A DNA stretch of 27,474 nucleotides from Nanobdellota archaeon (GTDB lineage Archaea > Nanobdellota > Nanobdellia > Pacearchaeales > GW2011-AR1): the NCBI GenBank assembly GCA_038044925.1, contig JBBSZC010000007.1:1-27474 (forward strand), in the 5' to 3' direction. Within the stretch, counting starts at the first letter, position 1; each line of letters opens with the position of its first letter. Below the pieces are notes generated by a model, which worked only from the letters and a program-made list of their open reading frames with translations, made no database searches and was not told the origin of the DNA. Both the position numbers and the translations under genes were made by a program. Shown piece after piece: positions 3,884-25,103 of this stretch.

Positions 3884-5980
3884 TCAGCAATTTCTTCCCA
3901 TTATCATTGAATAAGGTGTTCTTAAAAGAGTAACTAAATCTTCTGGAAGCATGAACTTTTCGTGGAACTTTCTATGATAGTCTAAAGCACATTCTGTTTC
4001 ACTTGGGCATTTATCTGTTCCTCTATAAGCTTGAAACCTAGTAGTTACACCAGCTGTACCATCCATAAATATGTTCTGGAATTCAACAGGAAGCGCGTCA
4101 ATAGCTTTTTGATGTTGGGGTCTTTGGCCACCTACCATCCACATATCCCCTTTTAATACATTTATAATTTGAGTTAATTCATCTAAAGAGAATTTTCTAA
4201 TAATTTTTCCAACTCTTGTTATTCTTGGGTCATTTGGGTTTTTGTAATTTGCCCCTGGATTTACAAAACCTTGTTTACGAGTTTCTTCAAATTGTTTATG
4301 TGCATTCTGGTTCATTGATCTAAACTTGCGCATTGTTGTTTCTTTATGATTAACTATTACTTTTTGTTTATAAAATACAGGTGCTTTTAATCCGGATTTA
4401 AGCGCTTTTATTGGGCCTAAATGTAGATTATCATATACTTCTTCTGCTTTTATTGCAGTGCCAATTCCAAGAGTCAATAAAGCTAAACTAGGCACCCATA
4501 GTGGTGATGTAGCAGTTAAAACAGAAAGATCAAATGCACGTTTAGTATAACGGTTTATATCAACAATATGCCCTTTATACCAATCTCTTATTTCTTGAGT
4601 GAGAAGAGAATAGGCTTGATTATTATTTTTTTCTTTTTCTTGAATAATCTCGTCTAATTCATTTACTAAAGCATCTTGGGTTAATGATTCTGAGTTGTTT
4701 TTGTTTGCTCTTACTAATAATTCTCTAATCGCTTCAAGATGGGGATTTTGAATTTGAACAGAATTTTCATCTTCTTTCTCTTTGCGAATACTGGCTGCAA
4801 AATCCTGAATTTGAGATGTACTTATTACATAATCTTCTAATCTTAATCTTTTTGGTTTACTTTTTAATCTTCTGTAATTATTTTTTAAAGAACTTACAGT
4901 CCTTTTAAACCAACCAGGTGCGTTGATTTTTGATTTCTCCTGTGAGGGGGTTATAACAGATGCAGGTTGTTCATGAATATTAGACATTTCTTCTAAATCT
5001 TTGTAATTAGAAATAACCGTTCTTCTTTTTTCTAATTCTGACAGGAAAGGAGAATATTCAAATTGTAAGTTTGCAGGCAGTTCTTTTGCAACTTCCTCCT
5101 GCAATTTTGTATTATAATCTGTTTTATTTAAGTAATTAAGGAGATTTTTTATTTCAACAGGCTTAAGTCCGGTGTTTATTCTATTCCAGTGTTCAGTGAA
5201 AGCAGAGAAGTCAGATGCTTCCTCTAAATTTAAATATCTTCCATTTTTATTAAAAAATTCTTTTTCCCATCTTAATTCTTCAGCTACTAATGCAATTCCT
5301 TCGCTATAATCTAGTTTTTTTGATAAAAGTTCTATTGGTCTGTAATCTTGAGCTTGGTTTAATGAACTTTCTAAAGAAGAATCTATGTATTCTTCTGGTT
5401 TAGTATTAATTGTTTCTTTTGATTCAGTATTAATTGTTGTTGAATAAGGAACTGTGATATATGAATCTAAAATTTCTGTTGGTGTTTTTCTTGTTCTTGG
5501 CTGCCTTTTTTTAAGTTCAGGATCTATGTCAGAATCAATTAATCTATTAATCATCCTGTAAAAAGTTGAACTGCTTACGCCTTTATTCTCAATAATTTTT
5601 TTAACAGGTGTTTTTGTTGTTTTATAAAGATAAACCATTTCTCTTATGTCATCATAACTTAATTTGGTATATGACTCTTTTTTTTGTGTTGCATATCCTG
5701 TTTCATATTTAGACATGTTTCTAAGAGAGTTGTCAACAAGGATTCTATTAGGGTTATAAGAATGCCAAGGTTTAGCTGAATCTTGCGGGAAATCAATAAT
5801 TTGTGTTTCTAATCTTCTTGTTTCTAGGGGAATATTAGCGCTTTCACTTTCTGTATAAATCTCATTAAATTCAGATGAAAAAGGATCAACTATTTCTGCT
5901 AAACCTCTTGATGGATAAGCTAATTCTGTTCTGCTTGCAACAAGGCATCTTCTTGAATTTTTTTCTGTATTTTTTATCAT
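3884..5980 (-). CDS. Monotopic phosphoglycosyl transferase (bacterial sugar transferase, WbaP/PglC type) fused to a ~475-aa N-terminal extension with an HTH
   Basis: The C-terminal ~220 aa carry the family hallmarks. These are a re-entrant helix with Ser-Pro (FDLSVLTATSPLWVPSLALLTLGIG), KFRSM, DPRITRVGKIIRKFSLDELTQIINVLKGDMWMVGG (Asp-Glu dyad), and a distal LDYHRKF...LLRTPYSMI block. The N-terminal part has an HTH-like segment (LSYDDIREMVYLYKTTKTPVKKIIENKGVSSSTFYRMINRL, about nt 5540-5662). Confidence 0.8.
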   Translation of the reverse strand: MIKNTEKNSRRCLVASRTELAYPSRGLAEIVDPFSSEFNEIYTESESANIPLETRRLETQIIDFPQDSAKPWHSYNPNRILVDNSLRNMSKYETGYATQKKESYTKLSYDDIREMVYLYKTTKTPVKKIIENKGVSSSTFYRMINRLIDSDIDPELKKRQPRTRKTPTEILDSYITVPYSTTINTESKETINTKPEEYIDSSLESSLNQAQDYRPIELLSKKLDYSEGIALVAEELRWEKEFFNKNGRYLNLEEASDFSAFTEHWNRINTGLKPVEIKNLLNYLNKTDYNTKLQEEVAKELPANLQFEYSPFLSELEKRRTVISNYKDLEEMSNIHEQPASVITPSQEKSKINAPGWFKRTVSSLKNNYRRLKSKPKRLRLEDYVISTSQIQDFAASIRKEKEDENSVQIQNPHLEAIRELLVRANKNNSESLTQDALVNELDEIIQEKEKNNNQAYSLLTQEIRDWYKGHIVDINRYTKRAFDLSVLTATSPLWVPSLALLTLGIGTAIKAEEVYDNLHLGPIKALKSGLKAPVFYKQKVIVNHKETTMRKFRSMNQNAHKQFEETRKQGFVNPGANYKNPNDPRITRVGKIIRKFSLDELTQIINVLKGDMWMVGGQRPQHQKAIDALPVEFQNIFMDGTAGVTTRFQAYRGTDKCPSETECALDYHRKFHEKFMLPEDLVTLLRTPYSMIMGRNC

Positions 5981-8944: not shown

Positions 8945-9397
8945 ATGAATGATAAGCGGGTATATCAAATTGGAGATAAATATTTTAGAGTAAATGTTTC
9001 TATGGCAGTTGATTGTCATTGTAATTTGAAATATCTTTATTCTGGAGGTAAAGTTCCAGGATGCAAAGGGCTTTTAAAAAAGGTAGATATTTTTATAGGA
9101 AAACAATATGAAAAAGGAAAAGGAATTATCTTTGATGATTCTTTTTGGGAGTCTTATCCTTCTATGTCTGTATTAATAAATGGAGATTCTGGTGAAACTA
9201 GTTGTTTTTATCTTGGAGATGACGAAAATATGCGTATAGCAAGATTAAAAGGATATGACTTATGCTTAATTAAAAAATTAAAAGAGCAGGGAGTAAAAGT
9301 TAAAGAAAAACTTTTATCAAAAGGAGAAAAACATGTTCCAAAAGAACATGTTAATTGGAATATAAATTATAATGATTCTTTAGAGCGAAAAGCTTAA
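8945..9397 (+). CDS. Hypothetical protein (150 aa, several Cys), divergent from polB
   Basis: Clean ATG-to-TAA ORF with complex sequence (…VDCHCNLKYLYSGGKVPGCKG…). No family recognised. Confidence 0.5.
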   Translation: MNDKRVYQIGDKYFRVNVSMAVDCHCNLKYLYSGGKVPGCKGLLKKVDIFIGKQYEKGKGIIFDDSFWESYPSMSVLINGDSGETSCFYLGDDENMRIARLKGYDLCLIKKLKEQGVKVKEKLLSKGEKHVPKEHVNWNINYNDSLERKA

Positions 9398-9421
9398 AAA
9401 CTACTACTAATAGGTTGTGGC

Positions 9422-9850
9422 ATGGTAGCAAGAACAATAACTCCATACGAAGTAAGAGAAGATTTAACTGATAGGCTTAGAGATATCCAGTCTAGACAAG
9501 ATGGAGCAGAGTACATTCAGTTTTGTCAGGAGAATGGATTTGATTTAGAAGATGGATATTTAGCAGACAGAGGAGAAATTGAATTGCTTGCTGAAAGAGA
9601 TTTAACTACATCTGAAAAGATAGGCAGGGATTTATATGAATGTATTGAGTTAGAAGGTTATTCTTCATTTGATTATCCTGATAAAATTAGAACTATTTTT
9701 AAAGAAAATGGAATTATTAAATTGCCTTTTATGGGCAGAGATACATCTATTATAGCTATTGGAAGATACGATCTTACAAAGTATGCAGTTAGTTTAATGG
9801 ATAATTATAAAAAATTGTTAAGAATTAATCCACGAGTTGCTTTTAGATAA
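9422..9850 (+). CDS. Hypothetical acidic protein (142 aa)
   Basis: ATG-to-TAA ORF starting 24 nt after the preceding gene, followed 30 nt later by fen. No family recognised. Confidence 0.5.
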   Translation: MVARTITPYEVREDLTDRLRDIQSRQDGAEYIQFCQENGFDLEDGYLADRGEIELLAERDLTTSEKIGRDLYECIELEGYSSFDYPDKIRTIFKENGIIKLPFMGRDTSIIAIGRYDLTKYAVSLMDNYKKLLRINPRVAFR

Positions 9851-12454: not shown

Positions 12455-14878
12455 TCATAATCTCTTCTCTATTTTTACTGCTGTTGGAGCTTCTCCTCCG
12501 TGCCATGTAAACCTAGGCCTTATACGCATCGGATATATTCTTTCTGAATTGTCATCAAGAATTATTGCAGAACCCTTAAGTTCAGGAAGATTATTTATTT
12601 GTTGTTTTATTCCTTCTAATACATAGCTCTGCATTATATAATTTAAGGCTTCTAAGTCTGGTTTTGCTGTAATTTTATGCGAAATAACAATATCTGCTTG
12701 AGTCATTACATCTTTATGAATTTGTCCTGGCTGCTGTGTGGCTAAGACAAGAGAAATTCCTGGCTGTCTTCCTTCTCTTAACAACTGAATTAAGGCATCA
12801 GTTGCTATTGTTTTTCCCCTTAATGGAAGAAATTCATGGGCTTCATCAATAAAAATCCAGACTAAGGGATATTCTTTTTTTTCTGCTCCAGACAAATACT
12901 CAAGCCCCTTTGCTATAGAATCAACTTCTTCTTTTTTTCTCATGAGCATTCTTTGATTAAAAATTTTTCTTGAAATTAAGCTTATCGCTAGAGCTCTTAT
13001 ATTAAAAGCTCCTACTGAATTATACACACTCAAATCTAAAACAGTGGTTAACCCAGGGGTTATTAAATCATTAATCTGTGTTTTATCAGATTCTTTTTCA
13101 GAGAAAATTCCCCAGGTTTTTGCTGCTTCAAATAGGCCTATTGCAGCATTTTTTATTTCTTGAGAAGTATTTTTATCTTGGATTATTGTTGCGATAATAT
13201 CCTCTATTCTAAAATTTTTCTTTTCTTTTAATCTGGACAAAACCCTTTCAATTAAAATTGCTACCGGATTTATCATATCTAATCCAAAAGTTAAAATCCA
13301 ATCTTCTGAAGTCATTTCATTTAAATCCAGGGAGAATTTATCATCTGCAAGGATTCCCCTTTCTCTGTAGTAATCATAATAACCGACTGGAACAAATATT
13401 TTTACAGGAAGATTTTTTGGTTTTAAACCCCATTGAGACAAAAGTTCTTTATCTTTTTGATTTTGATATTTCATAGTCCAATAAATTCCCATTGTATCAA
13501 AAATTAAAGAAGCAATATTCTGGCTTACTTTTTCATCAAGGTTTGAGAGTTCTTCTGCTATGACACCTAAAGTATAAGATTTTCCTGAATTGTGTGAAAT
13601 TATTCCGTTTGCAATAAACGAGTGATTTTTATTTACAGATAGGTCATAGACTTCATTAATTTCTTGGATTTCTTTTATACTCTTTATTCTTCTACATACT
13701 AAGTTATCTGATATATAGAATGTTTTTCTTTTTCTTGTCTTATTATCCTTATGTTTTTCTAATCTGTTTTGCTTAAATCTACTTATAAATCCAATCTTCT
13801 TGAAATTCTCCATTGAAGAATTATCTGTTATAAAGAGTCGATAATTTTTATATATCTTATTTGCGCATTTTGCATTTTTTTCTCTTATAGAGGATTCTAT
13901 CTCAAAATGTGATAAAATTAATTGCAAATCTTCTAAAAACTTTCTTGACTTGCTGGAATAATCTATATACTTGCCGTTGTTAGCAATATATCCATCACAC
14001 GAGAAGAGTGCCGATAAAAATTGTGCTTTGAATGTATTGGAACTCTCCAATACAATTTTAGGTATTCTAATTATTCCTGCTTTGTTCCCTAAAGGTACAC
14101 CTAATTCATGAATCTTATTAACAACTCTTGCATAAAGCGATTGAACAACAGAGCAGTCACAATCATTTCTTTTATATTGTTTTACATATAATCCAAATTC
14201 TTCTTCTAAATCTTTTTTTGCTATATTCAGTACATTTTCATCGTTGCAGAATATTCTTAATCTGCTTTTTGTCCCATTATACCAGCTACCTCTTCCATCT
14301 TTCCATCTTCCTTTTCTCTTGCTTATCGTTCCATCTGATAAAACAAATCCCAATATTCTTGCAAGTCTAAGGCTTTTTTCATTTTTTTTGATTTCTTGCA
14401 ATTTTGTAGATAAAATTATTTTATCTCTTGTTTTTAATTCTTGGGCCATTCTCCAAAAAAGATATTTTCCATAATTAACAAGCAAAGGATGTTCTTTAGT
14501 AAGTTGTAATTTTCTTCCATCATCTAATTCTATTTCTAATAATTTTTCTTTTGAAATATCATATTGTAAAAGTTCCGCATTTTCCCATTCAAACTCTTTT
14601 TTCTCTTTGTTAAATGAAAGAACTCTGTTTTCTTTTGAGTTGAATTCTTTTATAGGTTTATATCCTTCGTTTGTGAATATTAATGTTTCTCCTGTTAAAC
14701 ATCCTCTTTTTCCTGCAACTAGGACAACATGGGTTTTTGCAATGTCCATAAATAGGTTGTTGCTTAGAGAAGTGTATTGCCCCATTTTTACATAGCTCTT
14801 TCCAAGGTAAATTATGCCTTTTTTGCCTATTAATTTTTTATCAGATTCGTCTCTTCCAAGTATTATATCATAAGGCAT
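12455..14878 (-). CDS. HerA/DUF87-like P-loop ATPase interrupted by an intein (extein about 436 aa)
   Basis: Joining the exteins restores Walker A (VVLVAGKRG|SGKSYTLGV). Walker B is VWIFIDEAHEF, and the C-terminal LLREGRQPGISLVLATQQPGQI...ADIVISHKI is typical of HerA/FtsK-like DUF87 ATPases. Confidence 0.85.
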   Translation of the reverse strand: MPYDIILGRDESDKKLIGKKGIIYLGKSYVKMGQYTSLSNNLFMDIAKTHVVLVAGKRGCLTGETLIFTNEGYKPIKEFNSKENRVLSFNKEKKEFEWENAELLQYDISKEKLLEIELDDGRKLQLTKEHPLLVNYGKYLFWRMAQELKTRDKIILSTKLQEIKKNEKSLRLARILGFVLSDGTISKRKGRWKDGRGSWYNGTKSRLRIFCNDENVLNIAKKDLEEEFGLYVKQYKRNDCDCSVVQSLYARVVNKIHELGVPLGNKAGIIRIPKIVLESSNTFKAQFLSALFSCDGYIANNGKYIDYSSKSRKFLEDLQLILSHFEIESSIREKNAKCANKIYKNYRLFITDNSSMENFKKIGFISRFKQNRLEKHKDNKTRKRKTFYISDNLVCRRIKSIKEIQEINEVYDLSVNKNHSFIANGIISHNSGKSYTLGVIAEELSNLDEKVSQNIASLIFDTMGIYWTMKYQNQKDKELLSQWGLKPKNLPVKIFVPVGYYDYYRERGILADDKFSLDLNEMTSEDWILTFGLDMINPVAILIERVLSRLKEKKNFRIEDIIATIIQDKNTSQEIKNAAIGLFEAAKTWGIFSEKESDKTQINDLITPGLTTVLDLSVYNSVGAFNIRALAISLISRKIFNQRMLMRKKEEVDSIAKGLEYLSGAEKKEYPLVWIFIDEAHEFLPLRGKTIATDALIQLLREGRQPGISLVLATQQPGQIHKDVMTQADIVISHKITAKPDLEALNYIMQSYVLEGIKQQINNLPELKGSAIILDDNSERIYPMRIRPRFTWHGGEAPTAVKIEKRL
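13589..14701 (-). mobile_element. Intein (371 aa) with a LAGLIDADG homing-endonuclease domain, inserted in the Walker A P-loop
   Basis: It starts at Cys60 (CLTGETLIF, block A). Block B is LQLTKEHPLL, and the two LAGLIDADG motifs are LARILGFVLSDGTI and FLSALFSCDGYI. The C-terminal splicing blocks are VYDLSV...NHSFIANGIISHN, followed by +1 Ser (SGKS). Boundaries were verified at the nucleotide level (TGT at 14699-14701, AAT at 13589-13591). Confidence 0.9.
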
Positions 14879-19566: not shown

Positions 19567-19683
19567 TTATCTGCTTCTTGCTCTTCTCATTTTACGCCTA
19601 TGCTTTTCTTTTCTAAGTCTTTTTCTCTGCCATTTCCATCGCATCTGGCGTTTCTTTTTCCATCGTCTTGATGAGCGTTTCAT
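19567..19683 (-). CDS. rpl41e: Ribosomal protein L41e (38 aa; below the ORF-track length cutoff)
   Basis: Minus-strand translation from ATG (19681-19683) to TAA (19567-19569) gives MKRSSRRWKKKRQMRWKWQRKRLRKEKHRRKMRRARSR. This is the extremely basic RRWKKK-x-MRWKW signature of archaeal L41e. The overlapping plus-strand track ORF 19438..19671 is its antisense shadow. Confidence 0.8.
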   Translation of the reverse strand: MKRSSRRWKKKRQMRWKWQRKRLRKEKHRRKMRRARSR

Positions 19684-20334: not shown

Positions 20335-21021
20335 TTACCTGTTTCTTTGAACACCAATCTTTGGACAGTATTTGTTTATAGGACATTTTGAACACCATGG
20401 CGAAATTGGCTGGCAGATTTCTTTTCCAAACAAAACAAAAATTCCATTGAATTCTTGCCAATATTTTTTTGGAAGAATTAATTCAAGAGCTTTTTCTGTT
20501 TTTTCCGGCGTTTTTGTTTGAACCCATCCTAGTCTATTAGGTATTCTATGACAATGAGTGTCTATTGGCAAAACAAGCTCCCCAAAAGCAAATGAAAGAA
20601 CTATATTTGCTGTTTTAGGGCCTATGCCTTTTATTGATAATAATTCTTCTTTTGTTTCAGGAACTTTTCCATTGAATCTTTCAATTAATTCTTTTGAAAC
20701 GTGCTGAAGAGTTCTAGCCTTTTTTTTATAATGCCCTGAAGAATAAATTAAGGTTTCAAGTTTTTTTATTGGAAACTTCATAATTTTTTCAGGTGTGATT
20801 TTTTCATCTAAAGCTCCGAAGAGTTTTTTTGAAGCAATTTCTGTGTTTTTATCCTGAGTTCTTAAGGATAAGAGGCAAGAGATTAAAATCTTGAAGGCGT
20901 TTTCATTGTTTTTTCGCATTCTGTTTAGAGTGGTTTTTTCTTTATGATTGTAATATTCTGAGAGAGTTTCCATTATAGGAATAATATTTTTTATATATAA
21001 TTTTTCTTGATGATTTTCCAT
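20335..21021 (-). CDS. nth: Endonuclease III (HhH-GPD DNA glycosylase/AP lyase with a 4Fe-4S cluster)
   Basis: HhH motif LLSIKGIGPKTANIVL with the catalytic Lys, the Asp in PIDTHCHR, and the C-terminal cluster CQPISPWCSKCPINKYC. Confidence 0.9.
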   Translation of the reverse strand: MENHQEKLYIKNIIPIMETLSEYYNHKEKTTLNRMRKNNENAFKILISCLLSLRTQDKNTEIASKKLFGALDEKITPEKIMKFPIKKLETLIYSSGHYKKKARTLQHVSKELIERFNGKVPETKEELLSIKGIGPKTANIVLSFAFGELVLPIDTHCHRIPNRLGWVQTKTPEKTEKALELILPKKYWQEFNGIFVLFGKEICQPISPWCSKCPINKYCPKIGVQRNR

Positions 21022-21091
21022 TTGACAGACAAGATATTTGATGATTTAAACTTTCTTCTTTTCTTAATTTTTTTAGGTGTGCAGGTTCATA

Positions 21092-21248
21092 ACATATATC
21101 CTATGTAATTAATCTGATTTTATAGAGGAGAATATAGTTTTATTAATTAGCTTAAGAAAAGAGATAAGAAGAACTTTTTAATCAATTTAGAGTTTTATTG
21201 ACGATAAGGTTATATAATTTTAAGTAAAGTCAGGGGTAGGATATATGT
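21092..21248. repeat. 12-bp inverted repeat ACATATATCCTA / TAGGATATATGT (21092-21103 and 21237-21248) inside a 445-bp non-coding spacer
   Basis: Read directly from the sequence. Each arm is accompanied by a direct copy of TTAATTTTTT(T)AGG (21064-21078 and 21264-21276). GTGCAGG occurs at about 21078 and about 21363. Confidence 0.35.
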
Positions 21249-21466
21249 CCTGGTCTTATACACTTAATTTTTTAGGAAAGACTTATAAATGATTATTTTT
21301 CTAATTTATAATGGAAAATAAAAATTTCAAAAAACTTGAGGAAGTTTTAATTAACTATTAAGAGTGCAGGCTAAAATTAAAAATATTATTATTAATTTGA
21401 ATATGTATTAATCTAATCTATTAATTAAAATATGTAAATTTCTTGCTAAACAATTAAAATTCAAAA

Positions 21467-22726
21467 TTAGTCTTTGAGCCTTCCTGTTAAATCTTCTCGC
21501 GGGATTCCCCGGGCATTTATCAACAAAATTAGTTGAGACCTATTGTTTTCATAAGATTTTGAGCTTGTTAAATCCTTAATTAATGGGATTTTATTTAATC
21601 CAGGAACCCCTCTTGTAACATCTTTATACCTGGAAAATAAAGAATCTAATGCGAAATATGTTTCTCCTTCCTGAAGAACATAATTACTGCTTAAGTTTGC
21701 ATCTCTGAATATAGGAATTTGTTCTGTTGCTGTATATCCAGTTTGTTCTCCAGACTCCATTTCATTTATTTCAAGATTGATGTAACCATCATCATTTCTA
21801 TGGGCTTTGCCTATAAATTGTACTCCAGTTTTTTTGTATTCTACTGTTTTTATTAAATTGTCTTTTACAAACACAAATTGCGGGAATGGAATAGAAGACA
21901 TATTGCTCATCTTTACTTCTTGCCCATTTGATGCAAGCAGGTCTAAATCTGCAAGGATTTCAACATGCCCCCTGCTGTCTAAAAATTTTACGATGCTATT
22001 AAACTCATATCTTTGATTATCTAAACTGTATAATGGATTGCCATAAACACCCATTGTTAGACTTTTTCCATCTGAACTGCTTGGAAGATTTAAACCTAAA
22101 ATAGATTTTCCATCTCGTAATATATCTAAAATATTTTCTCTATCATATGTGTTGTCTCCAAAAAACTCCAAAAGCTTTATTTTTATTCTTATTTGTTCTG
22201 CAGGAATATCCATCTGATTTAATAAAGTTGAAAAATAACTAAAATCCCCGAATTTTTCCCTTGGTCCGGAAAAAACCACCATATTCCTCTGAGGAAATTC
22301 ATGCATTTCTATATCTGATAAATGTGGCTCGACTAATTCAATAAGCTCTTTAGGAGACACTCTGCATTTGTAAAGCAAGACCAATCCACCAGTAGCATTT
22401 TCTATATACTCTGCATTTATTAATGGAACTTTAAAAATTGTATTAGGTGTTGCATTAATTACTTCTTCAAGGGCAGTTGCTGGCCTTTGTTCTTCTTTTA
22501 AGTAAGTTCTGTCATTTACAACAACCCTTTGGTTTTGAGCATCATGTTTTTCATAATCAATTTCTATTTTTTGAAAATCTAGAGCGTCTTTGTTTTTTTG
22601 AGTGTCTGCCCTAAAAATTTCCTGATATGGGTCAAATTTTCTCTGTTTTTCTATTGAGCTACATCCAAGAATTGTAGAAAAAGATAAAATTCCTGCTAAG
22701 ACGTTTCTTAATAATCTTTTTTTCAT
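21467..22726 (-). CDS. Secretin-family protein with a lipoprotein signal peptide (Secretin_N/NolW-like domain plus secretin C-domain)
   Basis: The probable start is Met8 (22724-22726), giving MKKRLLRNVLAGILSFSTILG|C with lipobox Cys at 22661-22663. The N-domain ends in NMVVFSGPREKF...LLNQMDIPAEQIRIKIKLLEF. The secretin core reads FLDSRGHVEILADLDLLASNGQEVKMSNMSSIPF, VEYKKTGVQFIGKAHRNDDGYINLEINEMES, IPIFRDANLSSNYVLQEGETYFALDSLF, and RGVPGLNKIPLIKDLTSSKSYENNRSQLILLINARGI. Confidence 0.8.
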   Translation of the reverse strand: MKKRLLRNVLAGILSFSTILGCSSIEKQRKFDPYQEIFRADTQKNKDALDFQKIEIDYEKHDAQNQRVVVNDRTYLKEEQRPATALEEVINATPNTIFKVPLINAEYIENATGGLVLLYKCRVSPKELIELVEPHLSDIEMHEFPQRNMVVFSGPREKFGDFSYFSTLLNQMDIPAEQIRIKIKLLEFFGDNTYDRENILDILRDGKSILGLNLPSSSDGKSLTMGVYGNPLYSLDNQRYEFNSIVKFLDSRGHVEILADLDLLASNGQEVKMSNMSSIPFPQFVFVKDNLIKTVEYKKTGVQFIGKAHRNDDGYINLEINEMESGEQTGYTATEQIPIFRDANLSSNYVLQEGETYFALDSLFSRYKDVTRGVPGLNKIPLIKDLTSSKSYENNRSQLILLINARGIPREDLTGRLKD

Positions 22727-22812
22727 GCAAACCTTCTGATATAACACTTTAAAAGGATTTGTTTGCTGAAAAATGCAGAAAACTTTATATAGTTTGGAGT
22801 ATCTGTTTTATT

Positions 22813-23199
22813 ATGATTTGGAAAAGCTTAGAAAAAAGATTAAAGCAAGGTGCTTTGGTTACTGGATTGTTGGTTGGATTATCAAGTTCTGTTTCTGATG
22901 CAGATACAATTTATTATGGAAAATTAAAAGGCGCACAGAGAATTGCATATGTTGAGTTTGATGAAGTAAAGGTAGAGAGTAAATACCATAAACAACTTGA
23001 AAGATTAAGTGAAACAGATCCGAAATATACTGTTTTTGTTAATAAGAGATATAATAGCATAGTAGCAGCAATTACAGAAGTTGCTAAAGAAGAAAAATAT
23101 GATGTGGTTATTGAAAAAGGCGACCCAGATGTAAAAAATTCTACTGATATTGGAGAACTTGTCATGGCGAAATTAGAGGAAATTGAAAAAGATGCCTGA
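22813..23199 (+). CDS. Secreted OmpH/Skp-like protein, miniature form (short coiled-coil arm)
   Basis: From the ATG at 22813 there is a signal peptide MIWKSLEKRLKQGALVTGLLVGLSSSVSDA. The two ends then resemble the OmpH/Skp body: an N-terminal strand RIAYVEFDEVKVESKYHKQLE, and C-terminal IVAAITEVAKEEKYDVVIEKGDP...STDIGELVMAKLEE (compare the family pattern i..ai..vAkekgydlVld....DiT..V...L). It is divergent from the secretin with an ~86-bp spacer. Confidence 0.45.
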   Translation: MIWKSLEKRLKQGALVTGLLVGLSSSVSDADTIYYGKLKGAQRIAYVEFDEVKVESKYHKQLERLSETDPKYTVFVNKRYNSIVAAITEVAKEEKYDVVIEKGDPDVKNSTDIGELVMAKLEEIEKDA

Positions 23200-23250
23200 G
23201 CTGGTAGTTAGTGATAATTCTAAATCATGTGCGAGATAAATTTTTATCTA

Positions 23251-23291
23251 TAGTCAAGGACGATGAAATTTATTCGTTTGCGCCTTGACTA
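23251..23291. other. Strong hairpin: 9-bp stem TAGTCAAGG / CCTTGACTA with an inner 4-bp ACGA/TCGT helix
   Basis: Read directly from the sequence. It lies about 50 nt downstream of the Skp-like stop, is preceded by a T5 run, and abuts the TTG of track ORF 23292. Confidence 0.4.
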
Positions 23292-23312
23292 TTGAGGGAA
23301 AGTCATACAATT

Positions 23313-23492
23313 TTGGTCAATTATTTACGACTTTCATTATATCTATCCCCTAAATCTATTGGAGCAGGAACAATTGGAGCTTTAGGAACAAGTTTGTTAG
23401 TTCCTATGCTAGGAGTTTACTTTTTTCCAGGACTAGTCCTTTTTGGCTCTGCTTCTTCTTTGGTTAAGATTATTTCTAAAAAATTTAATTGA
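23313..23492 (+). CDS. Possible small hydrophobic Gly-rich membrane protein (only TTG starts available)
   Basis: The sequence ...SPKSIGAGTIGALGTSLLVPMLGVYFFPGLVLFGSASSLVKIISKKFN looks like one or two TM helices. There is no in-frame ATG before the hydrophobic region, and the ORF overlaps the pduL 3-prime end by 8 nt. Coding status is uncertain. Confidence 0.25.
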   Translation: MVNYLRLSLYLSPKSIGAGTIGALGTSLLVPMLGVYFFPGLVLFGSASSLVKIISKKFN

Positions 23493-24054
23493 TAATTAGT
23501 TCCCCATAAGATTTTTTATTTATTCCTGCTGCATTTGCTTCATCTGTATCGATTTGAAAAGCTAATTTATGTCTCTTTCCTGCTCTTATAATTACATTTT
23601 CAAATATCAATCCTCTTTTTCCTTTAACTCTTATCTTTACTTTTTGATTATTTTTTAGATTTAATTTTTTAGCTTCTTGTTCTGATAAATGAAGGTGCCT
23701 TTCTGCTATTATTAAACCAGTTGTTTTTATTTTTTCCTTAGAGCCCTTAATAATTATACCTTCAGAATTTTTTAAACCCCCTGAAAGATTTATTGGGGGA
23801 GTTTTTTTTAGTTTTAAATAATAAGAATCTGTTATTGAAATTTCAATCTGAGTTTTATTTCTTACAGGGCCAATAACCCTTGCTTTTAATTTCTTATTTT
23901 TATTTATTAATTCAACTTCTTCATTTGCTGCAAATTGCCCTGGTTGAGAAATAATCTTAATTGGCTTTAGTTTGTAGTTTTTCCCAAACAAGATTTCCAG
24001 ATGCCTTTTTGAAAGATGAACATGCCTTGCAGATATTTCAATTGGAATTTTCAT
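23485..24054 (-). CDS. pduL: PduL-type phosphate acyltransferase (phosphotransacetylase/propanoyltransferase analogue)
   Basis: Two PduL repeats are each introduced by the His motif: IEISARHVHLSKRHLEILFG and IIAERHLHLSEQEAKKLNL. The tail is AFQIDTDEANAAG. The gene overlaps the ackA stop (ATGA at 24051-24054). Confidence 0.85.
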   Translation of the reverse strand: MKIPIEISARHVHLSKRHLEILFGKNYKLKPIKIISQPGQFAANEEVELINKNKKLKARVIGPVRNKTQIEISITDSYYLKLKKTPPINLSGGLKNSEGIIIKGSKEKIKTTGLIIAERHLHLSEQEAKKLNLKNNQKVKIRVKGKRGLIFENVIIRAGKRHKLAFQIDTDEANAAGINKKSYGELIIN

Positions 24055-25103
24055 TTAATTATTTTTAATACCTCTCTTATTATTATTTCATCCTCATTTG
24101 CTGATTTGACATAGATTTTAACTTTAGAGGAGCTTGAAGATATTAGTCCTTTGTTTTTCTCGTTTTTATTTTTATCTAATTTTATTCCTAAAAAATCCAG
24201 ATGTTCACAGATATCTCTTCTTAGTCTTGGAGCATTTTCTCCTATTGCTCCTGTGAAGATTAGATTATTTAAGCCGTCTAAAACAGCGGTGTAAGCACCA
24301 ATGTATTTTATTATTCTGTAAACGAACATATCATAAGCAAGTTTTGCTTCTTTATTTTTTATGTTTTTTAAAATGTCTCTGAAATCCGAATATTTTTGGT
24401 TAGTTATACCTTTTATTCCTGATTTAATATTAAGAATTTTATCTGTATCATATCCTTTTTTTTCAAGGAATAGAACTATTCCTGGATCAAGGTCCCCACT
24501 CCTGGTACACATCATTAGTCCTTCTAATGGAGTTAAACCCATTGAAGTGTCTATTGGCTTATTATTTTTTATTGCAGTCATGCTCGCGCCTCTTCCTAGA
24601 TGGCAAGTTATTGTTTTTCCCTTTAATCCCCTTGAAACTGATTCATGAGAAAGTCCATGAAAGCCGTATTTTCTTATGTGATATTTTTTTGAAAGCTCTT
24701 TAGGAATTGGATAAAGTTTAGTTATTTCTGGAAGTTTTATAAAAAAACTAGTATCAAAAACAGCGAATTGAGGTTTTTTGAATTTCTCTGCAAGGTTTAT
24801 TATCATTAATTCTCTGGAATTATGCAAAGGAGCGAATTTAGAAAAATCTCTTATTTTTTCTTTTACCTTTTTATCTATTTTTACAGGGCTTTTCATATTT
24901 CCTCCATGAACAACCCTGTGCGCTATAATATCAAAACCAACTTTTTTACTCAATTCATTGCTTATTTTTTCAAAGGATTTTTCATAATCTTCTTTGCTTT
25001 TCAATTTTTCATATTTTCCTTCTAAAATTTTTTCCCTATTTTCAAAGAGGCTAAATTTTATTGTAGAGCTTCCAACATTAAAAACAAGTATTTTTTTCAC
25101 CAT
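24051..25103 (-). CDS. ackA: Acetate kinase (compact, 350 aa)
   Basis: ILVFNVGSSTIKFSLF, HRVVHGG, FDTSFF, YGFHGLSHE, CHLGRGASMTAIKNNKPIDTSMGLTPLEGLMMCTRSGDLDPG and FTGAIGENAPRLR are the canonical acetate/propionate kinase blocks. Confidence 0.9.
   Translation of the reverse strand: MVKKILVFNVGSSTIKFSLFENREKILEGKYEKLKSKEDYEKSFEKISNELSKKVGFDIIAHRVVHGGNMKSPVKIDKKVKEKIRDFSKFAPLHNSRELMIINLAEKFKKPQFAVFDTSFFIKLPEITKLYPIPKELSKKYHIRKYGFHGLSHESVSRGLKGKTITCHLGRGASMTAIKNNKPIDTSMGLTPLEGLMMCTRSGDLDPGIVLFLEKKGYDTDKILNIKSGIKGITNQKYSDFRDILKNIKNKEAKLAYDMFVYRIIKYIGAYTAVLDGLNNLIFTGAIGENAPRLRRDICEHLDFLGIKLDKNKNEKNKGLISSSSSKVKIYVKSANEDEIIIREVLKIIK

Follow-up and report, generated by a model that had tools for sequence, protein, structure and literature searches.

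The window analysed in this study, a stretch of 27,474 nucleotides that makes up the contig JBBSZC010000007.1 of a metagenome-assembled genome (MAG) of a Nanobdellota archaeon (GCA_038044925.1), carries a gene for a genuine secretin of the bacterial type and, next to it, a gene for a small secreted protein resembling Skp/OmpH. To our knowledge, secretins are a hallmark of the outer membrane of diderm bacteria and of filamentous phages, and full-text literature searches returned no description of archaeal secretin genes. The two genes probably represent a domesticated module, consisting of a lipoprotein secretin (liposecretin) and a mini-Skp, that was acquired long ago from bacteria and is functional and under purifying selection in DPANN archaea of the Pacearchaeota/Woesearchaeota type. 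The protein family itself is known; its host domain, its envelope context and its Skp-like partner are new.

The identity of the protein was assessed by profile searches and by fold comparison. The secretin, P0001, matched the Pfam Secretin profile PF00263 with an E-value of 2.6e-17 and 63.4 bits against a cut-off of 27.5, over residues 249-406 and profile positions 2-166 of 169, and all 25 aligned family members matched the same profile (best E-value 4e-26). The predicted model was compared with the PDB by Foldseek, and the 40 significant matches (E <= 0.001) were all secretins, GspD, InvG, PilQ, pIV, BfpB and RcpA among them, the next match being noise at an E-value of 0.09. The family profile aligned with E. 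coli GspD (5wq7, E-value 1.2e-18) in one stretch, 92-415, which runs through the N3 and secretin domains and includes the '...IPAEQIRIKIKLLEF' junction; PilQ 9sh1 (1.6e-17), pIV 7ofh (6e-14), RcpA (1.3e-10) and InvG (3.4e-6) were recovered as well.

These data confirmed the gene as a genuine secretin of the bacterial type. An earlier sequence-only reading of the window had proposed a secretin core with a diagnostic C-terminal motif, naming the lack of any secretin profile match as the result that would overturn it; the strong PF00263 match was found instead, and the motif, RGVPGLNKIPLIKDL, is conserved. The NolW/Secretin_N module claimed in that reading was borne out only in part, with support from the profile alignment to the N3 domain of GspD and from the predicted fold of residues 98-190 but not from Pfam, as Secretin_N (PF03958) was not significant for P0001 and reached an E-value of 0.017 in only two of 25 members. 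The NCBIfam models returned 38.6 bits against a cut-off of 351 for TIGR02517, 36.6 against 284 for TIGR02515 and 25.3 against 238 for TIGR02516. Since the GspD, PilQ, MshL and SctC models matched the C-terminal part only, at about a tenth of their cut-offs, the protein, though a secretin, is orthologous to none of the named ones.

The open reading frame (ORF) on the minus strand, 21467..22747, is intact. Its listed GTG start adds seven residues to the form that begins at the ATG at 22726, and it is the N-terminus of this ATG form, P0001, of 419 amino acids, that aligns with the N-termini of the orthologues. The gene and its parts are as follows.

21467 to 22726, minus strand: secretin gene P0001, ATG at 22726, stop at 21467-21469, 419 amino acids.
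22661 to 22726, minus strand: signal peptide and lipobox, residues 1-22, ending ...ILG before C22, read from the sequence.
22436 to 22660, minus strand: family-specific N-terminal region, residues 23-97, defined by alignment.
22157 to 22435, minus strand: single N3-like ring-building domain, residues 98-190, from AlphaFold2 and the profile alignment to GspD N3.
22007 to 22156, minus strand: family signature segment, residues 191-240, DNTYDRE ... LNLPSS, defined by alignment.
21488 to 22006, minus strand: secretin beta-barrel/gate domain, residues 241-413, from PF00263 and the model.
21557 to 21613, minus strand: conserved RGVPGLNKIPLIKDL loop within the secretin domain.

The signal is of the Sec type, with a positive, K/R-rich n-region, a hydrophobic core and the ILG-C22 lipobox. 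The lipobox cysteine is kept in at least 90% of the 25 aligned family members and the lipobox pattern is found in 23 of the 26 near-full-length ones, while P0002 also retains the aligned cysteine; the bacterial-style lipoprotein signal noticed earlier was thus present and its cysteine conserved across the family. Residues 23-97 contain the conserved motifs HEIFR.NE.KN, DY..YD and V.N.RAY, were modelled with a low to middling predicted local distance difference test (pLDDT) score and showed no Pfam match or known domain. The AlphaFold2 monomer model, built on 25 family members, has a mean pLDDT of 69.6 and is poor at residues 1-60 and 192-231. Within it, residues 98-190 adopt an alpha/beta fold with a pLDDT of about 90, and the barrel domain is formed by long beta-hairpins from about residue 250 to 410, together with a short helix at 381-387; the pLDDT values of residues 250-410 are mostly 64-92. 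The segment DNTYDRE ... LNLPSS is the most conserved signature of the family (D191, T193, Y194, L214, P215 and S216 invariant or near-invariant), though it is badly modelled (pLDDT < 50). The RGVPGLNKIPLIKDL motif is the conserved C-terminal secretin motif, with R372, G373, P375 and P381 invariant or nearly so, and we take its loop to correspond to the amphipathic helical loop of solved secretins. The protein terminates six residues past the secretin domain, leaving no C-terminal S-domain, and Pfam searches of P0001 and the aligned family members gave no hit to N0, STN or AMIN domains. The architecture is therefore minimal: a lipid anchor, a family-specific region of about 75 amino acids, one N3-like domain and the barrel.

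As regards the partner, the gene adjoining the secretin was overlooked in the sequence-only reading, and this conserved Skp/OmpH-like neighbour is new here. Its position and that of the intergenic region are given below.

22813 to 23199, plus strand: mini-Skp/OmpH-like secreted protein P0171, 128 amino acids, from the OmpH profile, AlphaFold2 and structure matches.
22727 to 22812, unstranded: divergent intergenic region of 86 bp with A/T-rich TATA-like boxes, seen by eye.
22748 to 22754: TTTAAAA box, 22-28 nt upstream of the secretin ATG.
22785 to 22792: TTTATATA box, 21-28 nt upstream of the partner ATG.

The TATA-like boxes constitute weak evidence because the DNA is 70% A+T, and a scan for sigma-70 promoters and terminators performed no better than on shuffled sequences. 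P0171 has a Sec-type signal peptide of about 30 residues followed by a mature part of about 98. The Pfam OmpH profile was matched by all nine partner-family members (E <= 0.1, best 2.5e-7), and several relatives of the partner have a precomputed PF03938 match. The AlphaFold2 model of P0171 has an overall pLDDT of 80.6, reaching at least 87 in each 10-residue block of the mature part. Structure comparison by VIA-align gave Skp 1sg2 with a Z-score of 8.2 (root mean square deviation 3.1, 82 aligned residues), SkpA 8gl8 with 6.6 and the OmpH-like 4kqt with 6.5, the next match scoring 4.6, and the top ten Foldseek matches were all Skp/OmpH with weak E-values of 0.009 or above. The model thus has the Skp fold, in which a small beta body carries a helical hairpin. 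In 8gl8 the Skp homologue is a structural component of the type 9 secretion translocon.

The two genes are associated well beyond the window. The partner adjoins the secretin in nine of 11 loci, divergently in the window and convergently elsewhere; since the orientation differs among loci, the linkage has survived rearrangement. All five secretin-bearing genomes tested contained the partner; when 151 genomes of the same taxonomic family were searched, it turned up in just the two with an orthologous secretin. Its family comprises 18 clusters, of which the two named ones come from Pacearchaeota. In the genome of locus L014 the partner lies beside nusA and rpoA'' and the secretin on a separate contig. 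A hidden Markov model of the partner detected nothing beside the sister-clade secretins described below, nor in those portions of L005 and L014 that were retrieved. The predicted complex of secretin residues 23-419 with partner residues 31-128 scored 0.00, which is evidence neither way. At L013:3254-3594 (minus strand), in a Rifle MAG, the mini-Skp is split over two frames, one with the signal part and one with the mature part, owing to a frameshift or a sequencing error.

The secretin gene was then examined in its genomic setting. The genome to which it belongs amounts to 615 kb in 15 contigs and is 79% complete, with a GC content of 0.29-0.31 on each contig. Pfam matches identified archaeal genes on the 27-kb contig of the secretin, namely PolB, FEN1, Trm5/TYW2, the small and large RFC subunits and HerA with an intein, and an AAA+ ATPase fragment is also encoded there; the archaeal character of the flanks, as first claimed, was thus borne out for PolB, FEN1, Trm5/TYW2 and the RFC subunits. 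The secretin gene has a GC content of 0.324, compared with a gene mean of 0.302 +/- 0.028 in the genome, and its codon-usage fit falls at the 16th percentile among the genome's 433 long ORFs, which is unremarkable; both values lie inside the range of the genome, in agreement with the AT-rich composition that the gene had been said to share with its flanks.

A chimeric join at about 21.0-23.5 kb had been put forward as the finding that would refute an archaeal secretin, and the region was checked in two metagenomes. None of the public sequencing runs listed as holding the stretch is an RNA data set. In run X1, a groundwater metagenome that may be the source sample, a single contig spans 20717-23304 with zero differences at a depth of 11, overlapping its left neighbour by 30 bases and meeting its right neighbour at 23307, while the pieces covering 16-27 kb have depths of 8.6-12.6. 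In run X2, from a different groundwater sample, the pieces 20722-22580 (depth 7.8) and 22587-23304 (depth 4.6) also show zero differences and are flanked by pieces at depths of 6.4-9.2. The assembly pieces of the two runs take in the endonuclease III gene, the secretin and the partner gene. The depth is even in both samples, and no coverage break was seen around 21.0-23.5 kb in either run.

Orthologues were searched for in other genomes. A word-indexed search returned 12 clusters with 35-53% identity, one of them named from a Pacearchaeota MAG, and an exhaustive search 19 representative clusters with E < 1e-28, followed by a gap to 1.8e-15. The search for orthologues in related MAGs, which had been suggested from the window, was carried out as a locus scan of one genome per prokaryote species with an alignment of eight closer family rows, and it found orthologues in eight MAG loci from several studies (Rifle, Crystal Geyser, NC groundwater, JZ-2 and others), labelled Pacearchaeota or Woesearchaeota and, in one case, 'Paceibacterota bacterium'. 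In L013 and L015-L018 the secretin and its partner are flanked by nusA and rpsL, within the rpoH-rpoB-rpoA-nusA / S12-S7-EF2 cluster typical of archaea. This cluster was identified at L015 from matches to Rpb5, Rpb1, Rpb2, KH, S12, S7 and EF-2; the same neighbour families occur in L013 and L016-L018, and partly in L012. L015 is the contig DAOTCN010000001.1, of 389 kb, labelled 'Candidatus Paceibacterota bacterium'. Since it encodes RpoH/Rpb5 and Rpb1/Rpb2-type subunits, this label appears to be wrong and the contig archaeal.

None of the ten loci read shows a disrupted reading frame. Comparison of L016 with L018, whose proteins are 87% identical, gave a nonsynonymous rate (dN) of 0.074 and a synonymous rate (dS) of 0.359, with a dN/dS ratio of 0.21. 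The intact frames, this ratio and the archaeal contexts together rule out a chimera, a contamination and a decaying relic. The view of the gene as an old, retained acquisition was supported, as it passed the secretin-profile and chimera tests and has orthologues in independent archaeal MAGs. The distribution is sporadic. PF00263 was found in none of 60 relatives and the family profile in none of 400 high-quality genomes drawn from the phylum, both being samples that are no proof of absence, while the family profile detected an orthologue in two of the 151 genomes of the same taxonomic family, the window's own and G521. No relative of the secretin was found in IMG/VR.

A maximum-likelihood tree was calculated from the N3-plus-barrel region of 117 sequences. 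The 26 family members form one clade with a Shimodaira-Hasegawa-like approximate likelihood ratio test (SH-aLRT) value of 100 and a stem of 1.24, apart from the sampled bacterial secretins. Their sister is a clade of 17 short 'orphan' secretins, with an SH-aLRT of 99 for the clade and a weak 84 for the sister relation. Lipoboxes were seen in its members P0032, P0034, P0036, P0042 and P0045, as well as in the related secretins of L031-L033, which come from genomes of the window's taxonomic family, have their nearest relatives in the sister clade and stand outside the tree. The contexts of sister-clade and related secretins are bacterial in some cases (sigma-70, HflX, RNase D, BatD) and archaeal for P0034 (L21e, Rpb4, S13, S4, S11, RpoD, L18e, L13). 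There are thus at least two lineages of secretins in DPANN archaea, both of them represented in G521. The phylogeny proposed earlier for finding the donor clade returned a distinct archaeal clade but no donor, and the clusters of the nearest hits outside the family carried no organism names; the nearest large clusters of the ESM Atlas for both the secretin and the partner are from Planctomycetota, which as a possible donor of the two genes may be considered a lead only.

Further observations concern these relatives. The second lineage of divergent lipobox secretins, of 364-451 amino acids, occurs at L021:5898-6992, L031:1150-2493, L032:1375-2496 and L033:913-2268, the L021 gene lying beside L21e, Rpb4, S13, S4, S11 and RpoD and the L032 gene beside ORFs that resemble TFS/RpoM and CDC48 by eye. 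At L020:8001-12814 the bacterial short secretin P0040 is encoded directly upstream of MacA-like and MacB-like (ATP-binding cassette (ABC) plus FtsX) genes, which hints that an ABC exporter might have a secretin for its outer-membrane partner. P0009, P0013, P0018 and P0020, together with the partners at L012:9541-9906 and L028:1498-1917, show n-regions resembling those of twin-arginine translocation (Tat) signals (RRDFL, RRGFL, RRNFI, RRDFF) in front of the hydrophobic core. Five carrier genomes were searched for TatC, the window's own and one with an RRDFF partner among them, and none yielded it. Export of a secretin by the Tat route would be unusual.

Regarding the function of the module, both proteins would be exported over a single cytoplasmic membrane by Sec, as the copies in the window carry Sec-type signals. 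The secretin would be lipid-anchored at Cys22 by an archaeal lipoprotein pathway, and the anchor may serve as a built-in pilotin and tether, as in bacterial liposecretins. A route of this kind, AliA/AliB, has been described in archaea, and lipoproteins as well as AliA, a candidate for the lipidation enzyme, have been reported from DPANN, where the route is present 'with some gaps' (PMC12462473). Lipidation of the secretin through AliA/AliB is possible, and a simple pattern scan detected five further lipobox-like ORFs in the window's own genome.

In the periplasm, Skp maintains the solubility of unfolded outer-membrane proteins, and secretins that are mislocalised are harmful even in bacteria, where they trigger the phage shock protein (Psp) response. 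The mini-Skp might similarly hold secretin subunits outside the cytoplasm, keeping them from assembling prematurely in the membrane of the producer itself. The subunits would then come together as a gated, multimeric ring, a double-walled beta-barrel that has a single N3 ring, lacks N0 and S domains, and whose hydrophobic lip would most likely reside in the membrane of another cell (a host or partner) or, failing this, form a portal through the archaeon's own surface layer; in either case the module would yield a large gated conduit for macromolecules or filaments. Omp85/BamA was not found in five secretin-bearing genomes, with controls positive in seven diderm bacteria. Insertion into a host or partner membrane is favoured because the lip needs a lipid bilayer, the trait is sporadic and no Omp85/BamA was found.

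We tentatively suggest, as a possibility well short of probable, that the lipid-tethered liposecretin and its dedicated mini-Skp act as a gated conduit from symbiont to host, with the beta-lip in the host membrane. A portal in the archaeon's own envelope is the next most likely role. If true, the former would be a secretin-based cell-to-cell conduit of archaea and the first secretin to work outside the diderm bacterial envelope. A 'secretin-like' barrel, wider (21 nm) and docking an intercellular tube, was observed by cryo-electron tomography in a different DPANN-host pair (PMC11329633). This barrel may be regarded only as an analogy, as nothing ties that structure to the family in the window.

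Several points weigh against a functional two-gene module of this kind. The match of P0171 to the Pfam OmpH profile (E-value 4.9e-5, 24 bits) falls under the cut-off of 32.4. Lgt (PF01790) and LspA (PF01252) were not found in the window's own 79%-complete genome, as is expected for archaea. That level of completeness also makes absences from this genome weak. A lone secretin lacking N0 shows no evident coupling to a motor in the cytoplasmic membrane. The lipidation, the chaperone-client relation, the oligomeric state, the target membrane and the cargo of the module are inferred.

Among the alternatives, the secretin might be the envelope portal of the archaeon's own type IV filament (T4F) machinery, passing a pilus, DNA or protein across the S-layer in the manner of PilQ or GspD. 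The sequence-only reading had noted that no pilus or type II secretion system (T2SS) ATPase, platform protein or pilin is present in the window. None was found there, the T2SSE and T2SSF families being absent from window ORFs of at least 90 amino acids, but T4F genes do occur on other contigs of the genome, where C11 carries a T2SSE-family ATPase gene with two T2SSF platform genes and C15 carries the gene of another ATPase. These genes, and the fact that GspD and PilQ are the best-scoring solved relatives by sequence, favour such a portal. On the other hand, neither in the window nor at any other locus examined are pilus, T2SS, type III secretion system or phage genes linked to the secretin; T4F systems are widespread in archaea and function without secretins, whereas the secretin occurs in just two of the 151 same-family genomes. 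Moreover, no N0 domain, the module by which secretins connect to components of the inner membrane, was found, and an S-layer provides no lipid for the hydrophobic lip. We consider this portal unlikely.

An explanation of about the same low probability is that the secretin fold has been re-purposed with no transport pore, as an adhesin or a structural ring, or is a decaying relic. The long stem in the tree, the unusual N-terminal and 191-240 segments and the lack of evident partner machinery would agree with it. The gate and barrel motifs and the C-terminal loop are kept, however, the frames are intact in ten loci, dN/dS is about 0.2 and a chaperone-like partner has been retained.

The carriers might instead possess a second, outer membrane, the secretin and Skp being parts or remnants of a system that builds a diderm-like envelope. 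Genes of both kinds are characteristic of diderms, and a few archaea with two membranes exist (Ignicoccus, Altiarchaeum, Methanomassiliicoccus). The five carriers without detectable Omp85/BamA speak against this, as does the sporadic occurrence of the module (0 of 60, 0 of 400 and 2 of 151), since an envelope architecture should be shared by a whole lineage, and the module consists of two genes only. This explanation thus appears quite improbable.

Lastly, a bacterial fragment mis-assembled or mis-binned, or a pIV-like gene of a virus or mobile element, could be invoked because secretins are otherwise described from bacteria and phages, a MAG is a metagenome bin and one carrier is labelled a bacterium, but it is scarcely credible, the assembly or binning artefact being largely refuted by the PolB, RFC and FEN1 genes on the same contig, the ameliorated composition, the even depth in two samples and the orthologues of independent archaeal MAGs, set within an archaeal RNA polymerase/ribosomal cluster under a wrong 'bacterium' label, and the virus or mobile element being opposed by the lack of any IMG/VR relative, of tRNA genes in the window and of integrase or phage families among the Pfam matches of its ORFs.

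The two-gene module therefore remains the favoured explanation, and a selected secretin with a Skp-like chaperone in archaeal genomes of less than 1 Mb, in which no Omp85 was found, raises a question about the envelope. Either there is an unrecognised lipid target, which could be the membrane of the host, or a secretin is able to work in a non-membrane envelope, and either answer touches the long-standing question of material exchange between DPANN symbionts and their hosts. The finding also shows that a secretin paired with Skp is able to travel and persist as a self-sufficient unit, and the module, being concrete and of about 1.7 kb, is suited to expression and imaging.

Other features of the window were also recorded. 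The feature named L41e in the sequence-only reading corresponds to the following ORF.

19567 to 19683, minus strand: L41e-like ORF of 38 amino acids, K/R-rich, a candidate for ribosomal protein L41e.

A HerA/DUF87-type ATPase gene at 12455-14878 (minus strand) is split by an intein with a LAGLIDADG homing-endonuclease domain. Directly beside the secretin module, at 23485-25103 (minus strand), the gene of a PduL-type phosphate acyltransferase overlaps that of an acetate kinase, the two making up a bacterial-style acetate/ATP module within a DPANN genome. The protein of 698 amino acids encoded at 3884-5980 (minus strand) has a C-terminal Bac_transf (bacterial sugar transferase) domain as its sole match and represents a further bacterial-type envelope gene on the secretin's contig. 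Between PolB and FEN1, at 8945-9850 (plus strand), lies a pair of ORFs of 150 and 142 amino acids showing no Pfam match. No tRNA genes or other Rfam features were detected in the window, and the intergenic stretch 21022-21466 contains no noteworthy ORF.

Comparison with known systems placed the archaeal proteins as follows. The phage secretin pIV is similarly compact, with a chain of 414 residues (7ofh, E-value 6e-14; fold TM-score 0.62 by target), but presumably has an N0 domain and no lipobox; the archaeal secretin, unlike pIV, has no phage genes nearby and no IMG/VR match and lies in chromosomal core-gene contexts. GspD and PilQ are its best matches in sequence and structure and share the C-terminal motif and the barrel hairpins. 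With 419 amino acids the archaeal protein is shorter than these (about 650-760), lacks their N0, N1, N2, AMIN and S domains and stands on a separate long branch. The orphan lipoprotein secretins of the sister clade, uncharacterised proteins of 360-620 amino acids from uncultivated bacteria and other DPANN archaea, are the nearest clade, have lipoboxes in several members and are solitary, with no T2SS or type IV pilus neighbours; at least four occur in archaeal contexts, and P0163, grouped with P0032, and P0051 belong to the clade as well. They differ from the family in the window by an identity of 23-29%, by the lack of an adjoining mini-Skp and by the lack of the family's N-terminal motifs.

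The partner shares with Skp/OmpH, including the SkpA of the type IX secretion system, its fold, its profile matches and its signal peptide. Unlike them it is encoded in archaea and has a mature part of only about 98 residues, compared with chains of 141-173 residues in the matched structures, so that its helical 'tentacles' would presumably be much shorter than those of Skp. The lack of N0 and of a cognate operon, the scores at about a tenth of the equivalog cut-offs and the Skp-like partner together place the archaeal secretin outside every named secretin subfamily.

HxcQ of Pseudomonas aeruginosa and BfpB and TcpC of type IVb pili are self-piloting lipoprotein secretins, the latter two with a small periplasmic partner. 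The archaeal secretin differs from these liposecretins in its host, where no Omp85, Lgt or LspA was found, in the absence of a linked pilus or T2SS operon and in having a single N3-like domain and no N0; its partner has the Skp/OmpH fold, unlike BfpG and TcpQ, and no TcpQ-type family was among its Pfam matches. It shares with them the N-terminal lipobox cysteine, followed by a linker, N-domain(s) and the barrel with no C-terminal S-domain to receive a separate pilotin, and with BfpB and TcpC also an adjoining gene for a small secreted partner (BfpG/TcpQ). The BfpB-BfpG structure (9u5s) gave the longest Foldseek alignment, 385 columns, with an E-value of 6.3e-10. By analogy, it is the bacterial liposecretins HxcQ, BfpB and TcpC that the archaeal secretin would most resemble in the way it works.

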